The position numbers were made by a program, and so were the translations under genes. DNA of 64,000 nucleotides, from NCBI GenBank assembly GCA_002773135.1, contig PFCB01000022.1, positions 7,591 to 71,590 of the forward strand, given 5' to 3'. This DNA is from Candidatus Magasanikbacteria bacterium CG10_big_fil_rev_8_21_14_0_10_47_10. GTDB taxonomy: Bacteria > Patescibacteriota > Patescibacteriia > Magasanikbacterales > UBA922. The notes beneath the pieces were generated by a model. The model had not been told where the DNA came from. It did no database searches and saw only the letters and a list, made by a program, of their open reading frames with translations. Below, one piece after another: positions 4,574 to 64,000 of this stretch (positions within the stretch are counted from its first letter, which is position 1; every line of letters starts with the position of its first letter).

Positions 4574-5197
4574 ATGAAAAAAGTTATTATTGTTTTAATT
4601 ATGACGGGAGCTGTCGCGTTGGCATGGTGGCTTATCTCTCCACTGTGGATAAACAAGACCGTTGATGACGTGCTTCCAACAGCAGCAAAGAGTCCACAGA
4701 CACAGGCCACCGGGAATGTTCAAATGGGTGTGACAATTGCTCCGGACAAGACACTGTCAGAAGTTGAGATGCTGGTGGAGCAGGTAGCCCCGGCAGATCG
4801 CGAACAATTTATGCAAGAGATGGAAGACCAAAAAACACATGAAATGGCTGAGTTAGTACCGTCATCTCCGCGCATCCTATCACAGGGAAACTTTTACAGT
4901 GTCGCGCATGAAGGTAGCGGTATTGCAAAATTGTTGAGCGTGGACGGATCAAACATATTGCGTCTTGAAAATTTGGATGTTCTCAATGGTCCTGACCTGC
5001 GCGTTGTCCTGTCAAAAAATACCGGTATCCGGACAAGCGCGGATCTTGGTGACTATATTGAGCTAGATACGCTAAAAGGGAACAAGGGAAACCAAAATTA
5101 TGAAATTGATTCATCGATTGATATAGGTGAATACAAATCTGCGGTTGTATACTGCAAAGCATTTCACGTTGTATTTAATGTCGCTGAACTACAGTAG
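4574..5197 (+). CDS. secreted DM13-domain protein (hypothetical)
   Basis: N-terminal signal/TM ([19 protein letters not shown]). The C-terminal region resembles a DM13 domain ([47 protein letters not shown]); this is recognition from memory. The longer ORF from 4526 starts with TTG. Confidence 0.5.
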
Positions 5198-5199
5198 GC

Positions 5200-6294
5200 A
5201 TGGGAAAAGATTACTACAATACACTCGGCGTTGAAAAAGGCGCAACTGATGAAGAGATAAAGAAAGCCTTTCGAAAGCTTGCGCATAAGTATCACCCGGA
5301 TAAGCCGACCGGAGACGAGCAAAAGTTCAAAGAAGTGAATGAAGCTTATCAGGTGATTGGGAATACAGAAAAGCGCAAGCAGTACGACCAATATGGCGCG
5401 ACCTTTGGCCAACAGGGCGGTTTTGGCGGCGGCATGAATTGGGAAGACTTCATGCGGGCGACACGCCAAGGTGGGGGTGGCGCAAATTTTGACTTTGGTG
5501 TTGACCTGGGCGATATTTTTGGTGACCTTTTTGGATTTGGCGGTGGGCGGAGCCGAGGCGGGCGGGGACGTGGAAGGGATATTCAAGTTGATGTTGAATT
5601 AACCTTCAAGGAAGCTGTCTTTGGAGTTGAAAAAGATCTTCATCTCACAAAGAATAACGCGTGCGCAGTGTGCAGCGGTTCTGGTGCAGAGCCCGGATCG
5701 GATAGAAAAAAATGTGATACATGTCATGGTCAAGGGCAGGTGCGGGTGGTTCAGAGAACCATTCTTGGCGATATGCAATCAGCGCGAGTGTGTACCGCAT
5801 GCTCAGGCGCGGGAGATATTCCAGAAAAGCGCTGCAAACATTGCAGCGGTGCTGGTGTTGAAAAAAGTAGCACATCGCTAACTGTAAAAATTCCTGCTGG
5901 TATTGATAATGGGTCATCGATACGCTTGACAGGCAAGGGGGAATATGGTGGCCCGGGATCAAGCGCAGGAGACCTGTATGTGGCCGTCCATGTTCACGAG
6001 GATAAAAGATTTGTCCGTCAGGGAGATGATATTTTGACAGAAGATACCATATCGTATCCCCAGGCAGTGCTTGGTGATACTATTGATATTGAAACAATTG
6101 ATGGAACCAAGCAGCTTGTTATTCCTTCCGGCACTCAGTCGCATCAACAATTTCGTCTCAAAGGTTTGGGTGTGCCGCATTTGCGTGGCAGCGGAAGAGG
6201 GGATCAGTATGTTCGTGTGAAGGTAGATGTGCCAAAGAAGCCGAGCAGACATGCAAAAAAATTGATTGAGGAGCTCAAAAATGAGCTACAATAA
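5200..6294 (+). CDS. dnaJ: molecular chaperone DnaJ
   Basis: J-domain with HPD ([11 protein letters not shown]), a G/F-rich linker, and four CxxCxGxG zinc-finger repeats. Confidence 0.95.
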
Positions 6295-6303
6295 GCAAAA
6301 AAA

Positions 6304-6338
6304 CAAAAAAACAGGCTTGACAAAGACCTGTTTTTTTG
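6304..6338 (+). terminator. intrinsic terminator after dnaJ
   Basis: aaacagg...cctgttt stem followed by a T7 run. Confidence 0.5.
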
Positions 6339-6385
6339 TTATTGTAATTTGTCCAAACTGCGTTGGACGTACCAAGGAGATTCTC

Positions 6386-6862
6386 GTGATCACGATCATT
6401 CTCGCTGTCCTGCTGGCTGTCGCCATGGCGTTCGCCGCCTTCTTGCTCAAGGAGATGTTCAAGAAGTTTGACTTCATGGCCGAGTTCCTGAGGAGCTCGG
6501 CGCTTATGGTGCACTATCGGCACGATGGGGAAGTCCGCGGGATGCAGAACATCGTGCTGAGGGGCAATGAGCCGTTCTGTGTGCTCGTCGGGTTCAAGAT
6601 GGTGCTCCCGGTTCTGGGGAACGTCGGGTTCGACTACTTCGGATTCGTTCGGTCGAACGACGACGGTGTGGCTGTCATCTGCACCTACCTCGGCTCGGGG
6701 TCGTGCGATTTTATCTTCGTCGCCGATTGTGACGTTGACATCAACCCGATCACAGCATCCTCGACGACAGAGGACCAGCAGCTCCAGCCGGATGTACGGT
6801 ACCCGCCGCACCCGCTGCTGCAGGTGCTGCCGGACAAGCTGAAGATGTTGTTCAACAAGTAG
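6386..6862 (+). CDS. GC-rich hypothetical membrane-anchored protein (compositionally foreign)
   Basis: GTG start 5 nt after AAGGAGA. N-terminal TM (VITIILAVLLAVAMAFAAFLL). GC about 58-60% with very high GC3, against about 45% in the flanks. A hairpin follows the stop. The antisense ORF 6275-6967 would clash with rnhA. Confidence 0.5.
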   Translation: MITIILAVLLAVAMAFAAFLLKEMFKKFDFMAEFLRSSALMVHYRHDGEVRGMQNIVLRGNEPFCVLVGFKMVLPVLGNVGFDYFGFVRSNDDGVAVICTYLGSGSCDFIFVADCDVDINPITASSTTEDQQLQPDVRYPPHPLLQVLPDKLKMLFNK

Positions 6863-6881
6863 GAACAGGGAGGAAGGAGAC

Positions 6882-6912
6882 GAAAAAAGCCCTCGAATCA
6901 TCGGGGGCTTTC
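6882..6912. terminator. bidirectional hairpin between convergent genes
   Basis: agccc...gggct stem flanked by an A-run and a T-run. It lies between the GC-rich gene (+) and rnhA (-). Confidence 0.4.
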
Positions 6913-6929
6913 GCAATGTTACACGTTCC

Positions 6930-7331
6930 TTACATGCGCGCATCAAGCGTTTTGTTGACCTCGGCATCGGCCAGCTTATTGTACTCGCGGCGAATATGCT
7001 TTATGGACCAAGGCTTGAATTCCTGAAGCGCATTGTACGCCTGGACAAATAGCTTTTGCAGTGTCGGCTCTTTTACTTTCCATCGTCCGTTCAGCTGCTC
7101 AACAACAAGTTTACTATCCAATCGGCACTCCACACTTGTTGCGCCAAGTGTTTTTGCTCGTTTCAGTCCGGAAATAATTGCTGAATACTCTGCATAATTA
7201 TTTGTCTGATGACCCAAAAAATCGCCATAGGCAGCCAGCGTTTTACCGGCTGTATCATGAATAACAACACCGGATGCAGAGGGACCGGGATTGCCCCGAG
7301 ATCCGCCGTCCGCGTAAATGATACATTTCAT
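6930..7331 (-). CDS. rnhA: ribonuclease HI
   Basis: 133 aa; the RNase H fold signature (IIYADGGSRGNPGPSASG...NNYAEYSAIISGL...) is obvious. Confidence 0.9.
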   Translation of the reverse strand: MKCIIYADGGSRGNPGPSASGVVIHDTAGKTLAAYGDFLGHQTNNYAEYSAIISGLKRAKTLGATSVECRLDSKLVVEQLNGRWKVKEPTLQKLFVQAYNALQEFKPWSIKHIRREYNKLADAEVNKTLDARM

Positions 7332-7334
7332 AGG

Positions 7335-9098
7335 TTACTTCTTTTTAAGATCAACAATTGTCATTTGTAATTCACGGTTGCCATTCCACTCATTGACACC
7401 AATTTCAAAAACTATATCAAGCACGTCTCCCTTCGACAGTTCACGACTCCAGTCTATCTCTCCACTGCACAAGTTCCAGCCGATTGTTTTGCGAATTGTG
7501 GTAGAGGTATGAGTGATCATGATTCGAAGGTGCTTGCCTTCCTTGCCCACAGGTTCGACACCTACAACAGTTACGTTCTGTGCTAAATATTTCGGCTCCT
7601 CATTTGCCTGACCAAATGGTTTAAATCGGCCAAGTAATTCATAGAGCCCCCAATTTACTTGTTCCAAATCAATCTGGGCATCAATTTTTATCGTCGGTGT
7701 CAAATCAATATCTTTTGTCACGTCTAAAAAATAATCGATAAATGCATTTTCAAATTCTTCGCGAATATCTGGCGATGCAAGGGTAAAACCGCATGCCATT
7801 GGATGGCCGCCAAATTTGGAAAAAAAATGCGGCATCTGTTGCAGCGCCTCAATCATATTGAACCCCTCAACACTGCGGCCTGAACCCATAAACTCAGAAT
7901 CGTCCTTCATGGTCATCGCAAAAACAGGTTTTTGGAATTCATTTTTTATCTGGCTTGCAATCAGACCCACAACCCCACTGGCCCAACCGGGTGCATACAC
8001 AAACAATACTGGTTTATCCATTTGTTTCTGACGTACTTGCTGAATTGCCTCAGTCACAAATTCGTCTGTCATGCGTCTTCGCTCATCATTACTTTGGTTG
8101 AGTTGCCATGCCAAATCCACGGCTTCTGTGCCATCTTTTGTCACCAGCAGCTGATACGCTGTATTGGCATGGTCAAGGCGTCCAGCAGCATTAATTCTGG
8201 GCGCAATGCGAAAGCCAATGGTTTGTGCATCAAGTTCGCGCGTGAGTGATCCGTCTTCATTCATTAGGCGTGCCTCCAAAAGAAGCTTTTGCAGGCCGAT
8301 ACGTTTTGTTTTGTTTAAAACAATAAGTCCAAAGGTTGTCAGAGTCCGTGATTCACCGACAAGTGGCACCATGTCCGCAACACTGGCGATGGCTACCATG
8401 TCGAGCAGCCATTTTTCAAATGCTTCATGATTTTCACCACTTTCAAGAAGTTCATTTTTTTCAGCATGGGTTCTGAGCAGTGCTTGCGCAAGTTTAAATG
8501 CAACACCTCCGCCAGCCAAATGTTTGTACGGGTACGTTTCACCTTCGACTTTTGGATGAATAATGGCAAAGGCAGGAGGGAGTCTTTCTGGAATGCTATG
8601 GTGATCAGTAATAATTACGTCTATCCCTTTTTCGTTGGCGTATTCAACCTCTGCTGTATTACTAATACCACAGTCGCACGTGATGATCAGCGATGTTTCT
8701 TGCGCATGTAGCAGATCAATTGTTTTCATGTTCAGACCATAGCCATCAGTTTCTCTGTGCGGCAAAAAAACGTCAACCGCAGTTGCTCCCAATGCGTGCA
8801 GTGTGTCTGTCAAAATAACCGATGCGCTCACACCGTCGGCATCATAATCTCCATGAATGGTTATTTTTTCATTTTTCTTAACCGCATCAATCAACCGCGA
8901 AACAGCCTTCTTCATGTCTTTAAATAAAAAAGGATCATGAACATGGCAGGTATAATCAGGATTCAGAAATTCGTCAATTGCATCCTGCGTGCGGATGTCT
9001 CTGTGATATAACAATGAGGCAACAGTTCGAGGCAGCTCTGGAAATTGCTCAAAAAAGCTATCTGGCGGAGAGGGGAGGACGTCCCAGCGTTTTTGCAT
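7335..9098 (-). CDS. recJ: single-stranded-DNA-specific exonuclease RecJ
   Basis: 587 aa; DHH (ITIHGDYDADGVSAS...DHH) and DHHA1 motifs. Lies immediately upstream of rnhA on the same strand. Confidence 0.9.
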   Translation of the reverse strand: MQKRWDVLPSPPDSFFEQFPELPRTVASLLYHRDIRTQDAIDEFLNPDYTCHVHDPFLFKDMKKAVSRLIDAVKKNEKITIHGDYDADGVSASVILTDTLHALGATAVDVFLPHRETDGYGLNMKTIDLLHAQETSLIITCDCGISNTAEVEYANEKGIDVIITDHHSIPERLPPAFAIIHPKVEGETYPYKHLAGGGVAFKLAQALLRTHAEKNELLESGENHEAFEKWLLDMVAIASVADMVPLVGESRTLTTFGLIVLNKTKRIGLQKLLLEARLMNEDGSLTRELDAQTIGFRIAPRINAAGRLDHANTAYQLLVTKDGTEAVDLAWQLNQSNDERRRMTDEFVTEAIQQVRQKQMDKPVLFVYAPGWASGVVGLIASQIKNEFQKPVFAMTMKDDSEFMGSGRSVEGFNMIEALQQMPHFFSKFGGHPMACGFTLASPDIREEFENAFIDYFLDVTKDIDLTPTIKIDAQIDLEQVNWGLYELLGRFKPFGQANEEPKYLAQNVTVVGVEPVGKEGKHLRIMITHTSTTIRKTIGWNLCSGEIDWSRELSKGDVLDIVFEIGVNEWNGNRELQMTIVDLKKK

Positions 9099-15812: not shown

Positions 15813-15844
15813 TTGCCTGGGTGAGCAATACAAATCAATCCATA

Positions 15845-16085
15845 GCTGCAGCCGTCGAGGTGTCGTTCCAGATGGTGAGGATACGACCTTCTCGATGCTG
15901 AGGATTGCCGCGCTGACTATTGTGGCACCTCTACCGCCACAAACTGTATTGATCACCCAGGGGTTCTCTCCTACCGCGTCATCGCGTCCTCCGGCCTGCT
16001 TGCCCGCCAGCGCGATGAACCCAACTGTGGTATCAGCGTACCAAGTCAGGCATGCAGGGACATCTGCGCACCCTCGGAAATGCGC
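15845..16085 (-). pseudogene. rhodanese-like gene remnant (no start codon)
   Basis: The minus-strand frame reads ...LEHWIIAHFRGCADVP...ENPWVINTVCGGRGATIVSAAIL..., resembling the rhodanese GHIPGA and active-site Cys-loop motifs. An in-frame TGA precedes it and there is no ATG/GTG/TTG start. It lies in a GC-rich island. Confidence 0.25.
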
Positions 16086-16133
16086 AATTATCCAATGCTC
16101 TAATCATATCAATCAGTTTGAATTGAAGCAAAC

Positions 16134-16160
16134 AAAAAAGCACCAATATGGCGCTTTTTT
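16134..16160. terminator. bidirectional intrinsic terminator
   Basis: aaaaaagcacc-aatat-ggcgctttttt: a GC core stem flanked by an A6 and a T6 run. Confidence 0.55.
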
Positions 16161-16448
16161 GTTCCGTCTATCTGCTAGAAGTAACAAAGAGAGGGGAATT
16201 GGGTGATACCGAAGTACCACCCGTGTGGGATTTACTAGGTTCCCGAACCTCTGTTAGCACGCCGCATCTGCCGTTGCAGATGGCCACAATGCGGCGAGAG
16301 CCGACAGTGGCGACCTATGTCGCCTTCACGCGGGATAAACCCGCGGAGCGTAGATTTCTCCACGCTCGCCAATGGCCAGGCATTGAATGCCGGGCACAAC
16401 TTTGGCGAGATACGTATCTCATCAGAGTTGTGCCTGTCACTTACTGAC
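16135..16448 (-). ncRNA. candidate structured ncRNA (about 310 nt) of unknown family
   Basis: On the minus strand it is bounded by a TTGACA-16-TATAGT promoter and the 16134-16160 terminator. The sequence is GC-rich, has no credible ORF in any frame, and carries at least 7 consecutive short hairpins (e.g. ggcgac-atag-gtcgcc, cgcggg-tttat-cccgcg, catctgc-aacg-gcagatg, cacaact...agttgtg). Confidence 0.35.
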
Positions 16449-16454
16449 CACTCA

Positions 16455-16482
16455 CTATAACAGACAATTATCATTCTGTCAA
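16455..16482 (-). promoter_or_regulatory. sigma70-like promoter driving the candidate ncRNA
   Basis: Minus-strand TTGACA (16482-16477), a 16-nt spacer, then TATAGT (16460-16455). Confidence 0.45.
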
Positions 16483-16639
16483 GTACTGCCAGCCTCTGTG
16501 GTGTGAATAACTAGAATATTGGCTTATTCTATCCAATTTTATCCATGATCATACCACCTTTGCAGATGGAATAGTCACGGGTGAGGTTGGGCAAGCAACC
16601 TCTGACCCTCCAATTGTACCCCTCTTGCCAGGGGCAGAC

Positions 16640-16891
16640 CTACGTGTGGTCGTTAAAGCCGTCGAGCGGGTCCTCGTCACGTCGCAGTGCGATTCGCGCC
16701 ATGTGCTCACAGGCGACGCCCAGTGCTACGCAGAGGAGCACGACTGCGGTAAAGAACCAGTTGACGGCGATGTTCGTCACATAGGCGTACCAGGCGAGGT
16801 ACATCGCGCCACCCAACAGCCCGAAGGCCACCAGGTAGAGCACAGTCGCTGCCGCGATCTGTGAGGGTCGCAGCCCTTTGTGCTTGTCCAT
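16640..16891 (-). CDS. GC-rich small two-TM membrane protein (hypothetical)
   Basis: 83 aa (MDKHKGLRPSQIAAATVLYLVAFGLLGGAMYLAWYAYVTNIAVNWFFTAVVLLCVALGVA...). Strong SD (GGAGA with a 4-nt spacer). Very high GC3. Confidence 0.55.
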   Translation of the reverse strand: MDKHKGLRPSQIAAATVLYLVAFGLLGGAMYLAWYAYVTNIAVNWFFTAVVLLCVALGVACEHMARIALRRDEDPLDGFNDHT

Positions 16892-21061: not shown

Positions 21062-23644
21062 ATGCAAGAAAAAATAATCATAAAAGGGGCACGTGAGCAC
21101 AACTTAAAAAATATAAGTCTGGAGCTTCCTCGCAATAGCATGATCGTCTTTACCGGCTTATCCGGTTCCGGGAAATCTTCCCTGGCCTTTGACACGATCT
21201 TTGCCGAGGGACAGCGAAGATATATTGAGAGCCTTTCATCCTACGCTCGGCAGTTTTTAGGTGGGATGCAAAAGCCGGATGTTGATGAAATAGAAGGTTT
21301 GTCCCCGGCCATCTCTATTGATCAGAAGGCTCATTCGGCGAATCCGAGGTCCACTGTATCGACCATAACCGAATTGTATGATTATCTTCGGGTACTTTTT
21401 GCCCGTGTCGGGCATCCGTATTGCCCTGTCTGTGGCGAAAAAATTGAAAAGATGAGTATAGATGCGATGGTCGAAAACGTCGCCGCAAAAATGGAGGATT
21501 CAACACAGACCCCGGAGAAATCCTCAAAAAATGAGGTCGTTATCTTGGCGCCCGTCGTGCGCGGCCGAAAAGGGGAATATTATCAAATGCTGTATGATAT
21601 GTATAACAGCGGTTACCTGGAAGTGAGAATAGACGGAAAAATATTGAGTCTTAAAGAGCGGATCAAACTTTCAAAAAACAAGAAGCACACTATCGAAATT
21701 GTCATAGACAAAATTCCCGGCAGCATCGCGCGGCAGGAGCCGGCGCCGCGCCTAGCGGAGGGGGTGGAGACAGCGGTTGAGTTATCTGATGGGCTCTGCT
21801 CGGTTATCTTTCCGAATGGACACGAGCAAGTGTACAGCACGCAATACGCGTGTCCGAATGATGGATATAGTTTTCCGGAGATTGAACCGCGCATGTTTAG
21901 CTTTAACAGTCCCTACGGATATTGTCAGGCGTGCACCGGATTGGGAACCAAGGAAATATTTAGCGAGGAGATTTGTTCGGTCTGTCAAGGAAAGCGCCTT
22001 AATGAAAATGCGCTGAGCGTTAAGGTAAGCGAAAAGAATATCTGGGAGGTTACTGATTTTACAATCGGCAGGGCAAAAACTTTTTTTGACGCGATTGATA
22101 AAGTGCTGTCCGACAGGGATAAAGAAATAGCAGGTGCCGCATTGCGGGAAATCCGCAATCGGTTGAATTTTTTGCATAATGTGGGGTTGCATTACATCAC
22201 ACTCAATAGGAAAGCCGGAACACTCTCCGGCGGTGAAGCGCAACGTATCCGGCTTGCGTCACAGGTAGGACAGCAGCTGGTAGGATCTCTTTATGTTCTC
22301 GATGAGCCAACCATCGGGTTGCATCAGCGGGACAATGATCGTCTTGTCGCGACCTTGCGAAACCTGTGCGATATTGGCAACACAATTATCGTGGTCGAGC
22401 ATGACGAAGATACTATATTGACCAGTGATTGGGTGGTTGATATCGGACCGGGTGCCGGAACGCATGGCGGCCAAATCGTATATTCCGGCCCATTGGGCGA
22501 GCTGCTTGGAAAAAAGGGAGGAAAGCTAAAAAATGGAGTTTACATTGATACCCAGGGAAGCGCGCGCGAATCCCTCACTGGAAAATACCTGCGGGGCGAG
22601 GAGCGCATTGAGGTGCCCAAAAAAAGAAGGAAGGTGGACAGTTCCACCGCGAAATTAAAGATAAAAAAGGCATCAGAGCACAATCTGAAGCACATTGACG
22701 TGGATATTCCGCTACGACGATTCGTCTGTTTGACGGGCGTTTCCGGTTCCGGGAAGTCAACATTGATGCACAAAATTTTATATCGAGCAGTCGCCAACAA
22801 GCTCAATCATGTAAAGAAAAAAATCGGCGATCACAAGGAGATAACAGGCATTGAATACATTGACAAAATCATTCGAATCGACCAGAGCGCCATTGGCAGA
22901 ACGCCCCGCAGTAATCCAGCAACATATACCAAGGCCTACGATGGAATTCGTGATCTGTTTGCCGCAACAGCAGAGGCGCGTATTCGGGGTTTCAGAAAAG
23001 GGAGATTTAGTTTTAACAGGCCGGGTGGTCGCTGTGAAAATTGCGAGGGTCGTGGCGCACTGCAGATAGAGATGCATTTTTTGCCAAGTGTTGAAATATC
23101 CTGTGATGAATGCTCAGGAAAGCGATTTAACAAAGAAACCTTGCAGGTACACTATAATGGAAAGTCCATTGCGGACGTCCTGAACATGACCATTGAAGAC
23201 GCGGAGGAATTTTTTGCGGACATCCCTTTTATTTTTGATAAGCTCAAAGTACTTAATCAAGTCGGTCTTGGCTACCTGACTCTTGGACAGTCCGCTACTA
23301 CGTTGTCGGGCGGTGAAGCACAGCGCATTAAGCTCTCAAAAGAGCTGGCTAAGCGAAATACAACCAAAACATTGTATTTGCTCGATGAGCCCACCACAGG
23401 ACTGCACTATGACGATGTGAAAAAATTGATAGGCGTGATACAAGACCTGGTTTCAAAGGGCAACACGGTTATGACAATAGAACATAATTTGGATGTCATA
23501 AAGTGTGCTGACTGGATCATTGACCTTGGCCCCGAGGGGGGTGATAAAGGCGGAACAGTGGTGGCGACTGGAACGCCCGAAGAGATAGCGCAGAAAAGTA
23601 CCGCAAGTTACACAGGCGCATACTTGAAGAGATTCTTAGCGTAG
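21062..23644 (+). CDS. uvrA: excinuclease ABC subunit A
   Basis: About 860 aa; two ABC ATPase modules (GLSGSGKSSLAFDT..., GVSGSGKSTLMHK...) and Zn-finger Cys pairs. Start taken at the first ATG (MQEKIIIKG). Confidence 0.95.
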   Translation: MQEKIIIKGAREHNLKNISLELPRNSMIVFTGLSGSGKSSLAFDTIFAEGQRRYIESLSSYARQFLGGMQKPDVDEIEGLSPAISIDQKAHSANPRSTVSTITELYDYLRVLFARVGHPYCPVCGEKIEKMSIDAMVENVAAKMEDSTQTPEKSSKNEVVILAPVVRGRKGEYYQMLYDMYNSGYLEVRIDGKILSLKERIKLSKNKKHTIEIVIDKIPGSIARQEPAPRLAEGVETAVELSDGLCSVIFPNGHEQVYSTQYACPNDGYSFPEIEPRMFSFNSPYGYCQACTGLGTKEIFSEEICSVCQGKRLNENALSVKVSEKNIWEVTDFTIGRAKTFFDAIDKVLSDRDKEIAGAALREIRNRLNFLHNVGLHYITLNRKAGTLSGGEAQRIRLASQVGQQLVGSLYVLDEPTIGLHQRDNDRLVATLRNLCDIGNTIIVVEHDEDTILTSDWVVDIGPGAGTHGGQIVYSGPLGELLGKKGGKLKNGVYIDTQGSARESLTGKYLRGEERIEVPKKRRKVDSSTAKLKIKKASEHNLKHIDVDIPLRRFVCLTGVSGSGKSTLMHKILYRAVANKLNHVKKKIGDHKEITGIEYIDKIIRIDQSAIGRTPRSNPATYTKAYDGIRDLFAATAEARIRGFRKGRFSFNRPGGRCENCEGRGALQIEMHFLPSVEISCDECSGKRFNKETLQVHYNGKSIADVLNMTIEDAEEFFADIPFIFDKLKVLNQVGLGYLTLGQSATTLSGGEAQRIKLSKELAKRNTTKTLYLLDEPTTGLHYDDVKKLIGVIQDLVSKGNTVMTIEHNLDVIKCADWIIDLGPEGGDKGGTVVATGTPEEIAQKSTASYTGAYLKRFLA

Positions 23645-23703
23645 TGGACAACGACACAAAAAAATTCGTCCAAGCGAGTTTTTTTTGCTATACTACTTTC
23701 AAT

Positions 23704-25533
23704 ATGAAACGCAGGAACATCACTATTATTGTATTAGTTCTCGTGATACTGAGCTTGGCTCTGCTTTATTATACACTGCGTTCGCCGGCTGTTGCATACG
23801 ACATTTCGTGGGTTCCCGTTGAACAGGGTGAGCTGGTACAAACTGTTTCAGAAACCGGAACAGTCACATCGGACGATGTACTTGCCTACGGGTGGGAGGT
23901 GAGTGGCAGGGTGTCGGTCATACATAAAAAAATCGGGGACGTGGTGCTAAAAGGTGATGTCATTGCGGAGTTGGAAAATGGGCAGCAGTCCTCGGCGGTT
24001 AAGGAAGCGGATGCCACAGTTGCTGCGGCTCAGGCTTTTCTAAATCGAGAATTGGCGGGTCATACACCCGAACGTGTGCAGGAGTCATTCTCGTCAATCG
24101 CGCAATATGAAGCCGCCCTCTCTCAATCAAAGGCTGAGCTGCTCAAAACACAGGTGACTGCGCAGAAGGCCATCGACGCGGCACAGCAGGCCCTTCGAGA
24201 TGCTGAAAATGACCTGCAGCGTCTGGATGTCACGCATGTATCTCAAATTACACAGTCCGCGTATGATGATTTGCGGACAACGCTTCAGCTGACCATCACA
24301 AAGTTGAACAAGGCACTGCTTGAGGCGGACTTGATTCTGGGGGTTGACGACAAGGACGTTAATGATTCTTTTGAATATTTGCTGGGCGCGTCGGACGTAT
24401 CAACCTATACGCGAGCGGTTCGGTCATACCGCAACGCGCGAGCGACAATCAGGACGCTTGAGCCGCTTGTTTTTTCGCTGACTCGAAATGCCGACTCGGA
24501 GATACTAAACGCAGCTGCCCGTGACGTGCAGGATGCGGGCGATTTGACGCAACTCATGATGTTGCACGTGCAGCAATTATTGTCTGCATCAGAAGGTGTT
24601 TTCATTGACGCAACCCAGGCAACGCTGGACGGCTTTAAAAATAGCATCTCGACCCAGCAGACAGCGGTAGCGACGGCAGAAGCGGCGCTGATCGACGCGG
24701 TGCAGGCAGTGGAGAGCGCAAAGAATTCGGTCGTGACCACCCAAATAGCATATGAGTCATCTGTGCTGAATTTTTCTCATGCCCAGAAGCAGGGCGACGC
24801 TGATACGGCTGTAGCGCAGGCGCGTGTTGAGGCTGATGAAGCAAGGTTAGTGCAGGTACAAGCTGCGCATAGCAATCTTGTTGCGCCACCACGAGCGGTT
24901 GATGTTGCCGCACTGCGAGCTGACGTTGCAAGGGCGGTCGCGGCTCGGGATAGAGCCATTGATACGCTTGAAAAAACACGGCTGGTGGCCCAGGCCGATG
25001 GGGTGATCTCGCGGCTTGAGGTGGCAGTGGGAGAAAATGTCACTGCTCAGATGGAAATAGTGATGCTTATCTCGGACACTCTTTTTGTCGATGTGGACAT
25101 TTCAGAGTCTGACATTGCAAAGGTGCATATTGGGGACTCAGTCACCGTCACGTTGGACGCCTTTGGTGATGAACGCGTCTTTACGGGGACAGTTCGTGCT
25201 GTTGAGCCAGGGGAAACGGAAATATCAGGTGTTATATATTACAATACGGACATTGCATTTGATAAAAATGGTGTTGAAGGCGTTAAAGCGGGAATGACCG
25301 CCAACATTATTATTTATACTGATAACCGCTCAGACGCGCTGTTTGTTCCATCTCGAGCCGTCCTTGGCCAAAATGGCAGACGTTTTGTGCGTGTACTGCT
25401 CGATGAAACAAAGGGCAAATTTGAGGAAAGAGATGTCACGGTGGGACTTCGCGGCGATGATGGCAAGATAGAAATACTATCCGGCGTGCGCGCGAATGAG
25501 CCGGTTATTACCTTCCTGCGTGAAAGAGAATAA
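23704..25533 (+). CDS. HlyD-family periplasmic adaptor (MacA-like efflux membrane fusion protein)
   Basis: N-terminal TM, a long coiled-coil, and C-terminal beta-barrel and lipoyl-like regions. Start at ATG 23704 (MKRRNITIIVL). Confidence 0.75.
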   Translation: MKRRNITIIVLVLVILSLALLYYTLRSPAVAYDISWVPVEQGELVQTVSETGTVTSDDVLAYGWEVSGRVSVIHKKIGDVVLKGDVIAELENGQQSSAVKEADATVAAAQAFLNRELAGHTPERVQESFSSIAQYEAALSQSKAELLKTQVTAQKAIDAAQQALRDAENDLQRLDVTHVSQITQSAYDDLRTTLQLTITKLNKALLEADLILGVDDKDVNDSFEYLLGASDVSTYTRAVRSYRNARATIRTLEPLVFSLTRNADSEILNAAARDVQDAGDLTQLMMLHVQQLLSASEGVFIDATQATLDGFKNSISTQQTAVATAEAALIDAVQAVESAKNSVVTTQIAYESSVLNFSHAQKQGDADTAVAQARVEADEARLVQVQAAHSNLVAPPRAVDVAALRADVARAVAARDRAIDTLEKTRLVAQADGVISRLEVAVGENVTAQMEIVMLISDTLFVDVDISESDIAKVHIGDSVTVTLDAFGDERVFTGTVRAVEPGETEISGVIYYNTDIAFDKNGVEGVKAGMTANIIIYTDNRSDALFVPSRAVLGQNGRRFVRVLLDETKGKFEERDVTVGLRGDDGKIEILSGVRANEPVITFLRERE

Positions 25534-34843: not shown

Positions 34844-34854
34844 GAGCCTTGTTC

Positions 34855-35532
34855 GTGATACGCTCTGGCTGTATGTTTCTTGCTATTGTACCAGCGTACA
34901 ATGAGGCGCCGCGTATAGGTTCCGTTATCCGGAGCCTTTTTGCGCATGTGGACCGAGTTCTCGTCGTGGATGATGGATCCACCGATGAGACGGCACGAGT
35001 CGCCGGGGAGCTGGGTGCCCATGTTATTATTCACCGCGTAAATCGTGGTCAAGGGGCGGCGCTGGAAACGGGGCACGCCTATGCTCGTCTCATTGGAGCT
35101 GAGTATGTTCTGCATTTTGATGCGGATGGCCAATTTGATGCAGCGGATGTTTCAGGCGCGCTTCAACAGTTGCGCGAGCAGAACGCGGATATCCTGCTCG
35201 GATCTCGTTTTATGGATGTACGCTCAAGGGTTCCCTGGACAAAGCGACACCTGATACTGCCCATCGGCAGACTGATTCACCGTTTCGTGTTTGGAGTACA
35301 CCTGTCGGACGCGCACAATGGCTTTCGAATACTCAACAAGCAGGCAATCGAGTTGCTTCACATTACACAAGACAGGATGGCGCACGCGACAGAGATTCCC
35401 GCTCGCGCGCAGCGGCTGCGACTACGAATTATTGAACACCCTGTCCGCGTCACATACCATACATATGGACAGGGTATTAAAGGCGGCATGAACGTAGTGA
35501 AGGATTTATTATTTAGTCGGTTTGTTAAATAG
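34855..35532 (+). CDS. family 2 glycosyltransferase (polyprenyl-phosphate sugar synthase-like)
   Basis: IVPAYNEAPRIG...VDDGSTDETA signature. Start ambiguous: GTG 34855 has an SD; ATG 34873 is the alternative. Confidence 0.8.
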   Translation: MIRSGCMFLAIVPAYNEAPRIGSVIRSLFAHVDRVLVVDDGSTDETARVAGELGAHVIIHRVNRGQGAALETGHAYARLIGAEYVLHFDADGQFDAADVSGALQQLREQNADILLGSRFMDVRSRVPWTKRHLILPIGRLIHRFVFGVHLSDAHNGFRILNKQAIELLHITQDRMAHATEIPARAQRLRLRIIEHPVRVTYHTYGQGIKGGMNVVKDLLFSRFVK

Positions 35533-48296: not shown

Positions 48297-48620
48297 TTAC
48301 GCTCCGGCGGACGAGGGGTGGGGGATTGGCGGGATGGTGGACACTTGGGATGCCAAATGGTCCGGTGGCTCAGGGAGCATGCTGTTCAGGCATTGCCTCA
48401 CCTCGCGACGGATGGCAACCCATCCGTTGATCACCACGATCAGCCGGGCTCTCTGTAAGCAGTCGATCACATAGATCAACCGCTTCTTCCCCAGATGTTT
48501 TGGGGCATCCGCCATCATACTGTCGAATGCCTGGTTGCCCTCCTTGTGCAGGCTGTAGAGAACCTGCAGGTGAACTCTGTGAAGAAGCGCCGCCCGCGTC
48601 CAAAATTCCTGCTCCGTCAT
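48297..48620 (-). CDS. GC-rich small putative winged-helix DNA-binding protein
   Basis: About 107 aa from MTEQEFW. An HTH-like core (LHRVHLQVLYSLHKEGNQAFDSMMADAPKHLGKKRLIYVIDCLQRARLIVVINGW). High GC and GC3. Lies antisense to the flanking + genes. Confidence 0.45.
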   Translation of the reverse strand: MTEQEFWTRAALLHRVHLQVLYSLHKEGNQAFDSMMADAPKHLGKKRLIYVIDCLQRARLIVVINGWVAIRREVRQCLNSMLPEPPDHLASQVSTIPPIPHPSSAGA

Positions 48621-48689
48621 TGATACCTCCTGTTGTCGAATAAAAACTATATACCGATTTAGACGATTTGTCAATTATACGAGATCCCT

Positions 48690-63464: not shown

Positions 63465-64000
63465 CTAGCACGGAAGTGCGGCCCGTTCATAGCTATACGG
63501 CCAAGGAATGTCCAGCCGATCAAAGATATCGTGCCAGTTCCCGGCGACCATGATACCGTCCGGCACCGCGGGCGTGTCCGCGTCACAGGCGTCGTCTTCG
63601 AGAATGAAGGGACGGCGGCCGTACATGACGCGCTTGAGCTGCAGCATGCCAATGCCGGTCAGATCCGGCAGGCGTGCCGACACAAGCGCGCTCAGCCCCT
63701 GCTGCCGCACCACAGTGTCGGTCACCGCCGTCCCGCTGAAGCAGACCACATTCCGCGCCGACAGCTTGCAGTCGGCTAGCAGATGCAGCTCACCCAGCGT
63801 CGCCCCCAGGTCAAGAGCGACCCGCATGGCGTTGCCGCGGTTCATGGCGTTCATCTGCTCGATGGGCGCGAGGAGACGGACGTTATCCGGCCCCAACCGC
63901 TCCACCAGTCGGCGCAGTGGCATGTGGCACCGTCCGCTGCGGACCGCGTCCCTGTACGGATGCGACCCTCTGCCGTCCGTCGCAAGAAGCAGCCCGGGCA
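63465..64000 (-). CDS. GC-rich hypothetical protein, N-terminus beyond the window
   Basis: The minus-strand frame stays open to the window edge (...PGLLLATDGRGSHPYRDAVRSGRCHMPLRRLVERLG...GNWHDIFDRLDIPWPYS*). GC is about 65%. There is a vague resemblance to metallophosphoesterases. Partial gene. Confidence 0.35.
   Translation of the reverse strand, partial: PGLLLATDGRGSHPYRDAVRSGRCHMPLRRLVERLGPDNVRLLAPIEQMNAMNRGNAMRVALDLGATLGELHLLADCKLSARNVVCFSGTAVTDTVVRQQGLSALVSARLPDLTGIGMLQLKRVMYGRRPFILEDDACDADTPAVPDGIMVAGNWHDIFDRLDIPWPYSYERAALPC

Follow-up and report, generated by a model that had tools for sequence, protein, structure and literature searches.

Small genes that stand apart from their genomic surroundings have been described in several forms. 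Phage morons, known from lambdoid and other phages, are additional genes that form transcription units of their own. Horizontally acquired ORFan or islet genes of atypical composition ameliorate over time, as in models of the Lawrence-Ochman type, and transferred genes are usually AT-richer than their hosts. Integron cassettes are normally promoterless. The gene considered here has features in common with each of these. It is an open reading frame (ORF) of 158 codons on the plus strand, at positions 6386-6862 of a 64-kb stretch (the window) of a contig from Candidatus Magasanikbacteria, a member of the Candidate Phyla Radiation (CPR, or Patescibacteria). Its silent sites, like those of most of its sampled homologues, are much richer in G and C than those of the host. 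The best explanation of the whole, held with moderate confidence, is a horizontally spread module that came from a GC-richer source pool and later lost GC at its silent sites.

The focal unit resembles a phage moron in that it is a single ORF with its own predicted promoter and terminator, a deviant composition and a patchy presence; dnaJ and rnhA, between which it sits, keep their order in two relatives, where other small ORFs lie between them. In contrast to morons, it lies among CPR chromosomal housekeeping genes, its family is absent from IMG/VR, INPHARED and PHROGs, and it is GC-richer than its surroundings, as the family is in many hosts. The phage or prophage residence that is expected of a moron is thus lacking.

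With acquired ORFan islets, the gene shares an atypical GC content at third codon positions (GC3), a variable context, patchy presence and a silent-site decay towards the host, with some copies fully ameliorated. However, it is GC-richer than its host, its GC contents at first and second codon positions (GC1 and GC2) are already host-like, and the anomaly is family-wide across hosts of 33-56% GC, with no identifiable donor or vector. Horizontal transfer is reported to be frequent among Patescibacteria (PMC12455944). No report of GC3-rich gene modules of such a kind was found in the literature.

An integron gene cassette is likewise a small single-ORF unit found in differing contexts, but the focal unit carries its own predicted promoter. 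Inspection of the flanking sequences at 18 loci, made by eye and not with a dedicated attC model, revealed only promoter, leader and terminator hairpins and no attC-like imperfect palindrome with R and L boxes, and no integrase is encoded among the called genes of any locus. The own promoter, the lack of a visible attC and the lack of an integrase in the neighbourhoods rule out this identity.

Silent-Site Composition of the Gene and Its Family

The focal coding sequence (CDS; 477 bp, GTG start, TAG stop) has a GC content of 0.581, with GC1 at 0.58, GC2 at 0.32 and GC3 at 0.84. The 57 other window ORFs of at least 100 residues have a GC3 of 0.484 ± 0.069 (maximum 0.80), which places the focal ORF at z = 5.2. 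The GC and GC3 values of neighbouring genes are 0.485 and 0.42 for dnaJ, 0.479 and 0.46 for rnhA, and 0.441 and 0.40 for recJ. A first-pass annotation, made from the sequence alone, had described the gene as GC-rich and GC3-rich relative to its flanks, and these figures bear it out. GC1 and GC2 are host-like (host medians 0.57 and 0.38), so that the anomaly is limited to silent positions.

An exhaustive HMMER search recovered 182 cluster representatives of the family at E <= 1e-3, almost all of about 150 residues, and the nearest homologues of the focal protein are 46-55% identical to it. DNA from 19 independent loci was compared, with the median GC3 of the flanking ORFs taken as the host value. 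Across these loci the family gene has a higher GC3 than its host (Wilcoxon p = 2e-4), and the excess is greater than 0.15 in 13 of the 19, over hosts that range from 0.24 to 0.61 in GC3 and from 33 to 56% in overall GC. GC1 and GC2 match those of the host (differences of about 0; p = 0.89 and 0.62). In the window the gene stands at 0.84 against 0.48. The corresponding values are 0.80 against 0.27 in L008, 0.77 against 0.24 in L018, 0.79 against 0.33 in L012, 0.72 against 0.27 in L016, 0.84 against 0.45 in L011, 0.78 against 0.40 in L015, 0.82 against 0.47 in L014, 0.66 against 0.37 in L009, 0.74 against 0.45 in L027, 0.59 against 0.35 in L021, 0.83 against 0.61 in L013, and 0.55 against 0.36 in L022. 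At six loci (L001, L002, L010, L017, L023 and L025) the gene is near the host GC3. The GC3 excess is therefore a trait of the family and not of the window copy alone.

The direction of silent change was examined in a sister subclade (L009, L015, L016 and L018), the window's own branch being too divergent. By parsimony, the terminal branches of this quartet carry 15 silent changes from G or C to A or T and none in the opposite direction. A simulated stationary process at the observed divergence predicts a ratio of 2-3.6:1, so that 15:0 has a probability of about 0.01-0.03. This polarity indicates that GC3 is decaying in the present hosts, as acquisition from a GC-richer background predicts.

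The focal ORF is a real small accessory gene that has its own predicted promoter and looks expressed. In GenBank it is the hypothetical protein COU35_02750, a 193-residue model that starts at 6281, within the end of dnaJ, and traverses a terminator, promoter and leader (6281-6385) before it reaches 6386. Since the homologues all begin at a hydrophobic transmembrane (TM) helix, the GTG at 6386 is the preferred start, and the GenBank model is over-extended. The exact 193-residue product, which crosses the left junction of the gene, is on record from three contigs and in NCBI, JGI, ENA and Logan, and in more than 10 independent assemblies from other hosts a GC3-rich family gene is likewise set in AT-richer flanks. 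For these two reasons, mis-assembly at the focal gene is unlikely.

Architecture of the Predicted Transcription Unit

The first-pass annotation overlooked a promoter and leader architecture that is conserved between the window copy and its homologues. Following the dnaJ stop at 6294, an A-tract, hairpin and T-tract at 6299-6343 make up a bidirectional intrinsic terminator, with 17-nt arms that are 94% complementary and a fold of -19.3 kcal/mol (z = -6.15 against shuffles). A predicted promoter of the sigma-70 type lies at 6317-6345 on the plus strand. It consists of TTGACA at 6317-6322, a 17-nt spacer and the extended -10 element TGtTATTGT at 6337-6345, and it scored 10 of 12 matches with the TG present in a promoter scan. 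The -35 box is located in the loop of the hairpin, and the T-tract serves as the promoter spacer. The whole element looks like the bidirectional terminator of dnaJ with the promoter of the module embedded in it. A -35 box inside a terminator hairpin is found in the window, L011, L012 and L016. In the alignment, promoter sequence and position are kept across the family loci, and GC3-rich copies in unrelated hosts have the same promoter at an equal distance from the start codon.

In the 5' untranslated region, a hairpin (gtccaa-actgcg-ttggac) is predicted at 6351-6368 on the plus strand, close to where the mRNA is predicted to begin. Folded individually, the leaders of L008, L011, L012, L015 and L020 have a hairpin at the equivalent position with different stem sequences. 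RNAalifold on a MAFFT alignment recovered no consensus structure, covariation being judged by eye only, and the window hairpin alone folds no better than shuffles (z = -0.32). The Shine-Dalgarno sequence (SD) that the first-pass annotation had assigned to the gene is indeed there, read from the sequence as AAGGAG at 6374-6379, 6 nt upstream of the GTG. The homologues have an SD of the GGAGG type at the same place.

The downstream hairpin noted at first pass is also real. Inverted-repeat and folding analyses place it at 6886-6911, GC-rich and shared by the two convergent genes. On the minus strand, T6 comes after it and it forms a canonical rnhA terminator; on the plus strand, it precedes TTTCG and is weak. 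It is thus at least equally the terminator of rnhA. A near-identical terminator (aggcctcc..cgtttcgacg..ggaggcct followed by a T-run) is found in L009, L015, L016 and L018, and a longer shared variant in L008 and L012. The window copy lacks this family-typical aggcctcc...ggaggcct terminator.

GC-richness spans the leader and the first 60 nt past the stop codon, and host level is reached again by +100 nt. Because it extends over the leader and the 3' untranslated region, the mobile unit would be the whole transcription unit, of about 600-700 bp. By prediction this unit is autonomous, with its own promoter upstream and hairpins on both sides of a single ORF.

The whole slot is also flanked by a perfect 10-nt inverted repeat (TACAATAAGC at 6287-6296 and GCTTATTGTA at 6974-6983). 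Its arms fall within the terminal coding sequence of dnaJ and of rnhA, and about 0.3 such pairs are expected by chance per 800 nt, so the repeat is probably a coincidence.

Origin of the Module

Under the favoured explanation, the family would travel as a self-contained single-gene unit of promoter, leader hairpin, strong SD, CDS and terminator. A near-consensus promoter, often within a bidirectional terminator, would insulate the unit from the upstream gene, and in the window genome it would have become lodged at the convergent junction of dnaJ and rnhA. The GC-rich silent sites would be inherited from the module lineage and not created in the window genome. Copies would enter AT-richer CPR genomes horizontally from a GC-richer pool; after arrival, their silent sites would slowly lose GC, the amino-acid-determining positions being, on this account, already host-like.

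The first-pass annotation had proposed acquisition from a high-GC donor. The accessory status of the gene, its variable slot, its foreign-looking silent sites and the 15:0 polarity speak for acquisition. However, the notion of a one-off event from such a donor is not supported, given a GC3 excess in 13 of 19 hosts, host-like GC1 and GC2, and no donor found. The evidence instead points to repeated horizontal spread from a GC-richer pool; we infer that the route was horizontal transfer and that a GC-richer source exists. If there was a donor, another CPR lineage or a CPR mobile element is the most likely one.

Several further observations fit amelioration after transfer. The copy in L014 is decayed and still has a high GC3, which, together with the polarity of silent change, is consistent with such a course. 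The host-like copies of L001, L002, L010, L017 and L023 have no leader hairpin, as expected of old residents. At four-fold degenerate sites, all four GC3-rich ORFs of the window have G at least as frequent as C, whereas the GC3-rich islands of L013 all have more C than G. This suggests a common source for the window ORFs and, from the contrast with L013, host-specific sources.

A number of results weigh against this explanation. Firstly, no GC-richer reservoir came to light. At none of the 19 loci do the genes of the surrounding host reach a GC3 of 0.75, in database scans that were not exhaustive; even in L013, where the host is GC-richest, the family gene remains an outlier. An amino-acid composition of the high-GC type is absent from all 142 representatives (GARP minus FYMINK at most +0.10), and the family has no matches in IMG/VR, the INPHARED phages or the PLSDB plasmids. 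Secondly, silent sites are near saturation between most of the GC3-rich copies, so that each copy would need its own fairly recent transfer; such transfers would require a diverse GC-rich pool. Thirdly, the syntenic pair L027 and L033 holds a GC3 of 0.74 and 0.72 at a fixed site, and the GC-rich state can therefore persist over species-level divergence. Fourthly, no transposase, integrase, repeats or att-like sites account for the movement of the unit. Finally, the polarity test comprises 15 substitutions in one subclade, scored by parsimony.

Some of these results lend themselves to another explanation, possible but rather doubtful, in which GC-richness is maintained in place by selection on the transcript or by GC-biased gene conversion focused on the unit, with no need for a GC-rich donor. 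Resistance to AU-directed RNases and host-independent high expression are examples of what might be selected. Such maintenance would be in keeping with an excess that is family-wide over hosts of GC3 0.24-0.61 and clusters at about 0.7-0.84, with GC1 and GC2 as in the host, and with the lack of a GC-rich reservoir in the loci, in amino-acid composition and in the phage and plasmid collections. The near-saturation of silent sites among GC3-rich copies also agrees with it, and the module looks made for strong, stable expression, with its predicted consensus promoter, 5' hairpin, SD and terminator. In the subclade of L009, L015, L016 and L018, the genes are rich in C at third positions and neutral between A and G at lysine, glutamate and glutamine codons, a pattern more like codon selection than GC pressure. 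In L027 and L033, where the neighbouring genes have a GC3 of 0.39-0.56, four-fold sites of the family gene are conserved at 0.78, against 0.49 for RNase J and 0.41 for SBP5.

Against maintenance in place stands the polarity of silent change, which goes beyond stationarity. About a quarter of the copies have a host-like GC3 and equally conserved proteins, so that GC3-richness is not needed for function, and the decayed L014 copy is GC3-rich nevertheless. In the same genomes, no GC3 enrichment is found in genes that are highly expressed (rpsF, rpsR, efp and dnaK). No paralogues for gene conversion were found, each locus having one copy and the 64-kb window no other. Selection on RNA structure was rejected for the focal mRNA, which is not markedly more structured than shuffles (z only -2.05). 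The low divergence of L027 and L033 reaches into neighbouring genes, and a recombination tract fits this better than constraint on the gene; the pair was accordingly set aside as a test of persistence, being confounded by the broader tract.

It is tempting to speculate further that single-gene modules of this kind, GC-rich, insulated and strongly promoted, form a hitherto undescribed class in CPR genomes; this family would be its clearest example, and at least three other units of the window would be alike in style. Their transcripts would be actively maintained or re-seeded by a dedicated mechanism, and would not be the outcome of ordinary sporadic transfer. Candidates for the mechanism are an unsampled GC-rich mobile element of CPR, selection at the transcript level for host-independent expression, and localised GC-biased conversion. 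We regard this proposal as unlikely.

A single recent import into the window genome from a high-GC organism outside CPR is very unlikely. The GC3 of 0.84 in a genome at 0.48 would agree with it, and the window genome seems to receive GC-rich DNA, as the ORF at 63465-63923 has a GC1 of 0.70, a GC2 of 0.45 and a GC3 of 0.80. However, the informatively named homologues are all from CPR and the nearest are only 46-55% identical. The focal gene has host-like GC1 and GC2 (0.58 and 0.32), its promoter and leader architecture is common to copies in other CPR hosts, and the same anomaly is present in 12 other hosts.

Hardly credible, lastly, is an artefact, either a chimeric assembly or binning error or a misread gene whose true frame is the 230-residue antisense ORF at 6275-6967(-): the island boundaries are near the gene ends and the long antisense ORF exists, but the junction-crossing 193-residue product comes from three contigs and several sources, the flanks are coherent regulatory elements interlocked with the terminators of dnaJ and rnhA, and the plus-strand protein is conserved in 182 clusters, AT-rich versions included. 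The antisense ORF itself was rejected as a codon-aligned shadow frame. A sense strand without A-ending codons leaves this frame open automatically, and no base-specific conservation is seen at silent sites.

Implications

Taken alone, the window yields a modest gain, namely that what is annotated as a hypothetical protein is a genuine accessory gene and that its start codon can be placed better than in GenBank. The wider point lies in the family, which has been seen only on contigs that are CPR or unclassified and whose silent sites stay GC-rich in hosts of 33-56% GC, a pattern that opposes the usual AT-richer trend of transferred genes. Should a full data set bear this pattern out, gene flow among ultra-small bacteria could be traced with the family, which would also offer a natural setting in which to tell mutation bias, amelioration and selection on GC apart. 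The design of a terminator with an embedded promoter could serve as a portable insulated expression element. What merits further attention is the GC3 pattern of the whole family, together with the insulated design of the module; taken by itself, the gene is an accessory ORFan of an ordinary kind.

The dnaJ-rnhA Junction in Relatives

In the window, the gene is surrounded by the housekeeping genes dnaK, dnaJ, rnhA, recJ and lepA, with no phage genes nearby. The first-pass annotation had suggested looking for the same insertion in related genomes. The nearest DnaJ relatives are only about 70% identical, and two of them (L029 and L031) keep the local synteny. The genes of L029 run dnaK, DM13, DUF4230, dnaJ, an ORF of 70 residues and convergent rnhA. 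In L031 (Magasanikbacteria GCA_014729395.1), ORFs of 117 and 130 residues come after dnaJ, and then convergent rnhA, recJ and lepA. Thus, the convergent arrangement of dnaJ and rnhA is shared, but the family gene is not: the slot is occupied in both relatives, never empty, and its ORFs have a host-like GC3. As the relatives hold different small ORFs, the slot at this junction is variable and, in the window genome, the family gene is an accessory one.

Another relative, L032, which has a complete-looking genome of 1.23 Mb, has about 1.4 kb after dnaJ (6100-7500) with no called gene and a GC content of about 0.5, while the genes of this genome have a GC3 of about 0.2-0.28. The stretch is possibly an rRNA or another RNA gene.

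The Protein

An AlphaFold2 model built with a 75-sequence alignment has a pLDDT of 92.7 and a pTM of 0.82. An N-terminal helix comprises residues 2-36 (6389-6493, plus strand); residues 2-22 are hydrophobic and form the TM segment, which is followed by the juxtamembrane motif E..KKF. In the alignments, E23, K26, K27 and F28 are near-invariant. A seven-stranded, jelly-roll-like beta-sandwich is predicted for residues ~41-125 (6506-6760, plus strand). It is a compact all-beta sandwich of about 100 residues and, as modelled, belongs to the same fold class as small jelly-roll domains and domains resembling carbohydrate-binding modules (CBMs). Fold searches gave generic beta-sandwich matches only: the Anabaena sensory rhodopsin transducer (2ii7), TM1070 (1nc7), Ruminococcus CBMs (5aot and 5fu2) and PirA (7fcn). 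No Pfam match was obtained at E <= 1, and no PHROGs or PADLOC match at E <= 0.01. The TM helix and the beta-rich domain of no recognisable family that had been read from the sequence thus hold up. The domain had also been described as Cys-containing. Cysteines are present, but only C65 is kept among the closest homologues, and C65 is not family-wide.

No basic residues precede the TM helix and a KK pair follows it. By the positive-inside rule only, the topology would be N-out/C-in, with a cytoplasmic domain. The beta-sandwich may be a membrane-tethered binding or scaffold module, which is the most that the modelled fold supports.

Two motifs are found family-wide, E..KKF after the TM segment and YPPHW(Y/W)QRLGFYG at the C terminus. 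The window copy has lost the conserved end after YPPH and terminates in PLLQVLPDKLKMLFNK; in the alignments, this divergent tail (YPPH-PLLQVLPDKLKMLFNK; 6806-6862, plus strand) is still GC3-rich. The last 23 nt of the CDS (6838-6860, encoding LKMLFNK) are 78% identical to 6445-6467, which encode the juxtamembrane LKEMFKKF. The aberrant tail might have come from a partial internal duplication or recombination, and the resemblance could also be chance.

Family Members in Other Hosts

Informatively named records of the family are from Magasanikbacteria (three), Uhrbacteria and "Patescibacteria group". Two metagenome-assembled genomes bear an automatic, unconfirmed label of "uncultured Gammaproteobacteria". 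The family has been seen so far only on contigs that are CPR/Patescibacteria or unclassified. The neighbourhoods of the family gene are unrelated between loci, and no conserved synteny is found around it besides near-duplicate contigs, identical or almost so and from different samples, and the pair L027 and L033.

The decayed copy of L014 (7587-8321) has an in-frame loss of about 38 beta-sandwich residues and a degenerate TM segment, and is fused to an unrelated upstream frame. In L021, an in-frame TGA (6154) falls within the family gene where homologues often have Gly. This copy is either a pseudogene or belongs to a host that reads UGA as Gly (code 25), and ORF lengths compared under the two codes did not separate these possibilities. 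In two unrelated hosts, a small ORF of 80-85 residues with a GIY-YIG domain adjoins the family gene (L023, 9762-10004; L025, 8484-8741), which could hint at nuclease-assisted mobility or be a coincidence. In L013 (Uhrbacteria), the family gene is the last of three consecutive GC3-rich genes at 4957-8444, with values of 0.83-0.90 against the background of 0.61. The other two encode YARHG-domain proteins, and this is the sole locus with a multi-gene GC-rich block.

Other GC3-Rich Units and a Structured Region in the Window

The first-pass annotation had mentioned several similar GC3-rich mini-islands in the window, and a phase-resolved scan with frame assignment located three, all on the minus strand. 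The second GC3-rich ORF (16640-16891) encodes 83 residues with TM-like hydrophobic stretches and has a GC3 of 0.80. It has a predicted promoter (TTGACA-17-TATGGT) and an SD (AAGGAG), and no Pfam, PHROGs or PADLOC match above threshold.

The third (48297-48674) encodes about 107 residues from a probable ATG start at 48620, with a GC3 of about 0.67-0.75. A promoter (TTGACA-17-TATAGT) is predicted, along with an SD of the GGAGG type and a T-rich terminator. Like the focal gene, it has more G than C at four-fold sites, and it has no family match.

The fourth unit (63465-64000) contains the ORF at 63465-63923 already mentioned, which encodes 152 residues and has no family match. Unlike the focal gene, this ORF has a genuine high-GC signature in its amino acids. 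A GC-rich tract (0.66) surrounds it and continues past the window end, and the unit may be part of a larger island. Two other peaks of the scan (24.7-25.1 kb and 34.9-35.3 kb) were rejected as GC3 islands, being GC1-rich stretches in the ORFs at 23644-25533 and 34849-35532.

On the minus strand, the second ORF is directly upstream of a region of about 800 nt (15830-16639) that has no credible ORF and a GC content of about 0.51. Taken whole, it folds much more stably than shuffles on both strands (z = -9.1, minus strand; z = -6.35, plus strand). The core (16135-16450, minus strand; z = -8.0) is a chain of perfect short hairpins. The same strand carries a promoter-like TTGACA-17-TATAGT (~16483-16455) and, at ~16165-16135, a strong bidirectional terminator. 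No Rfam match at E <= 0.1 and no tRNA or tmRNA were found in the region, which may represent an undescribed structured RNA or a cluster of palindromes.

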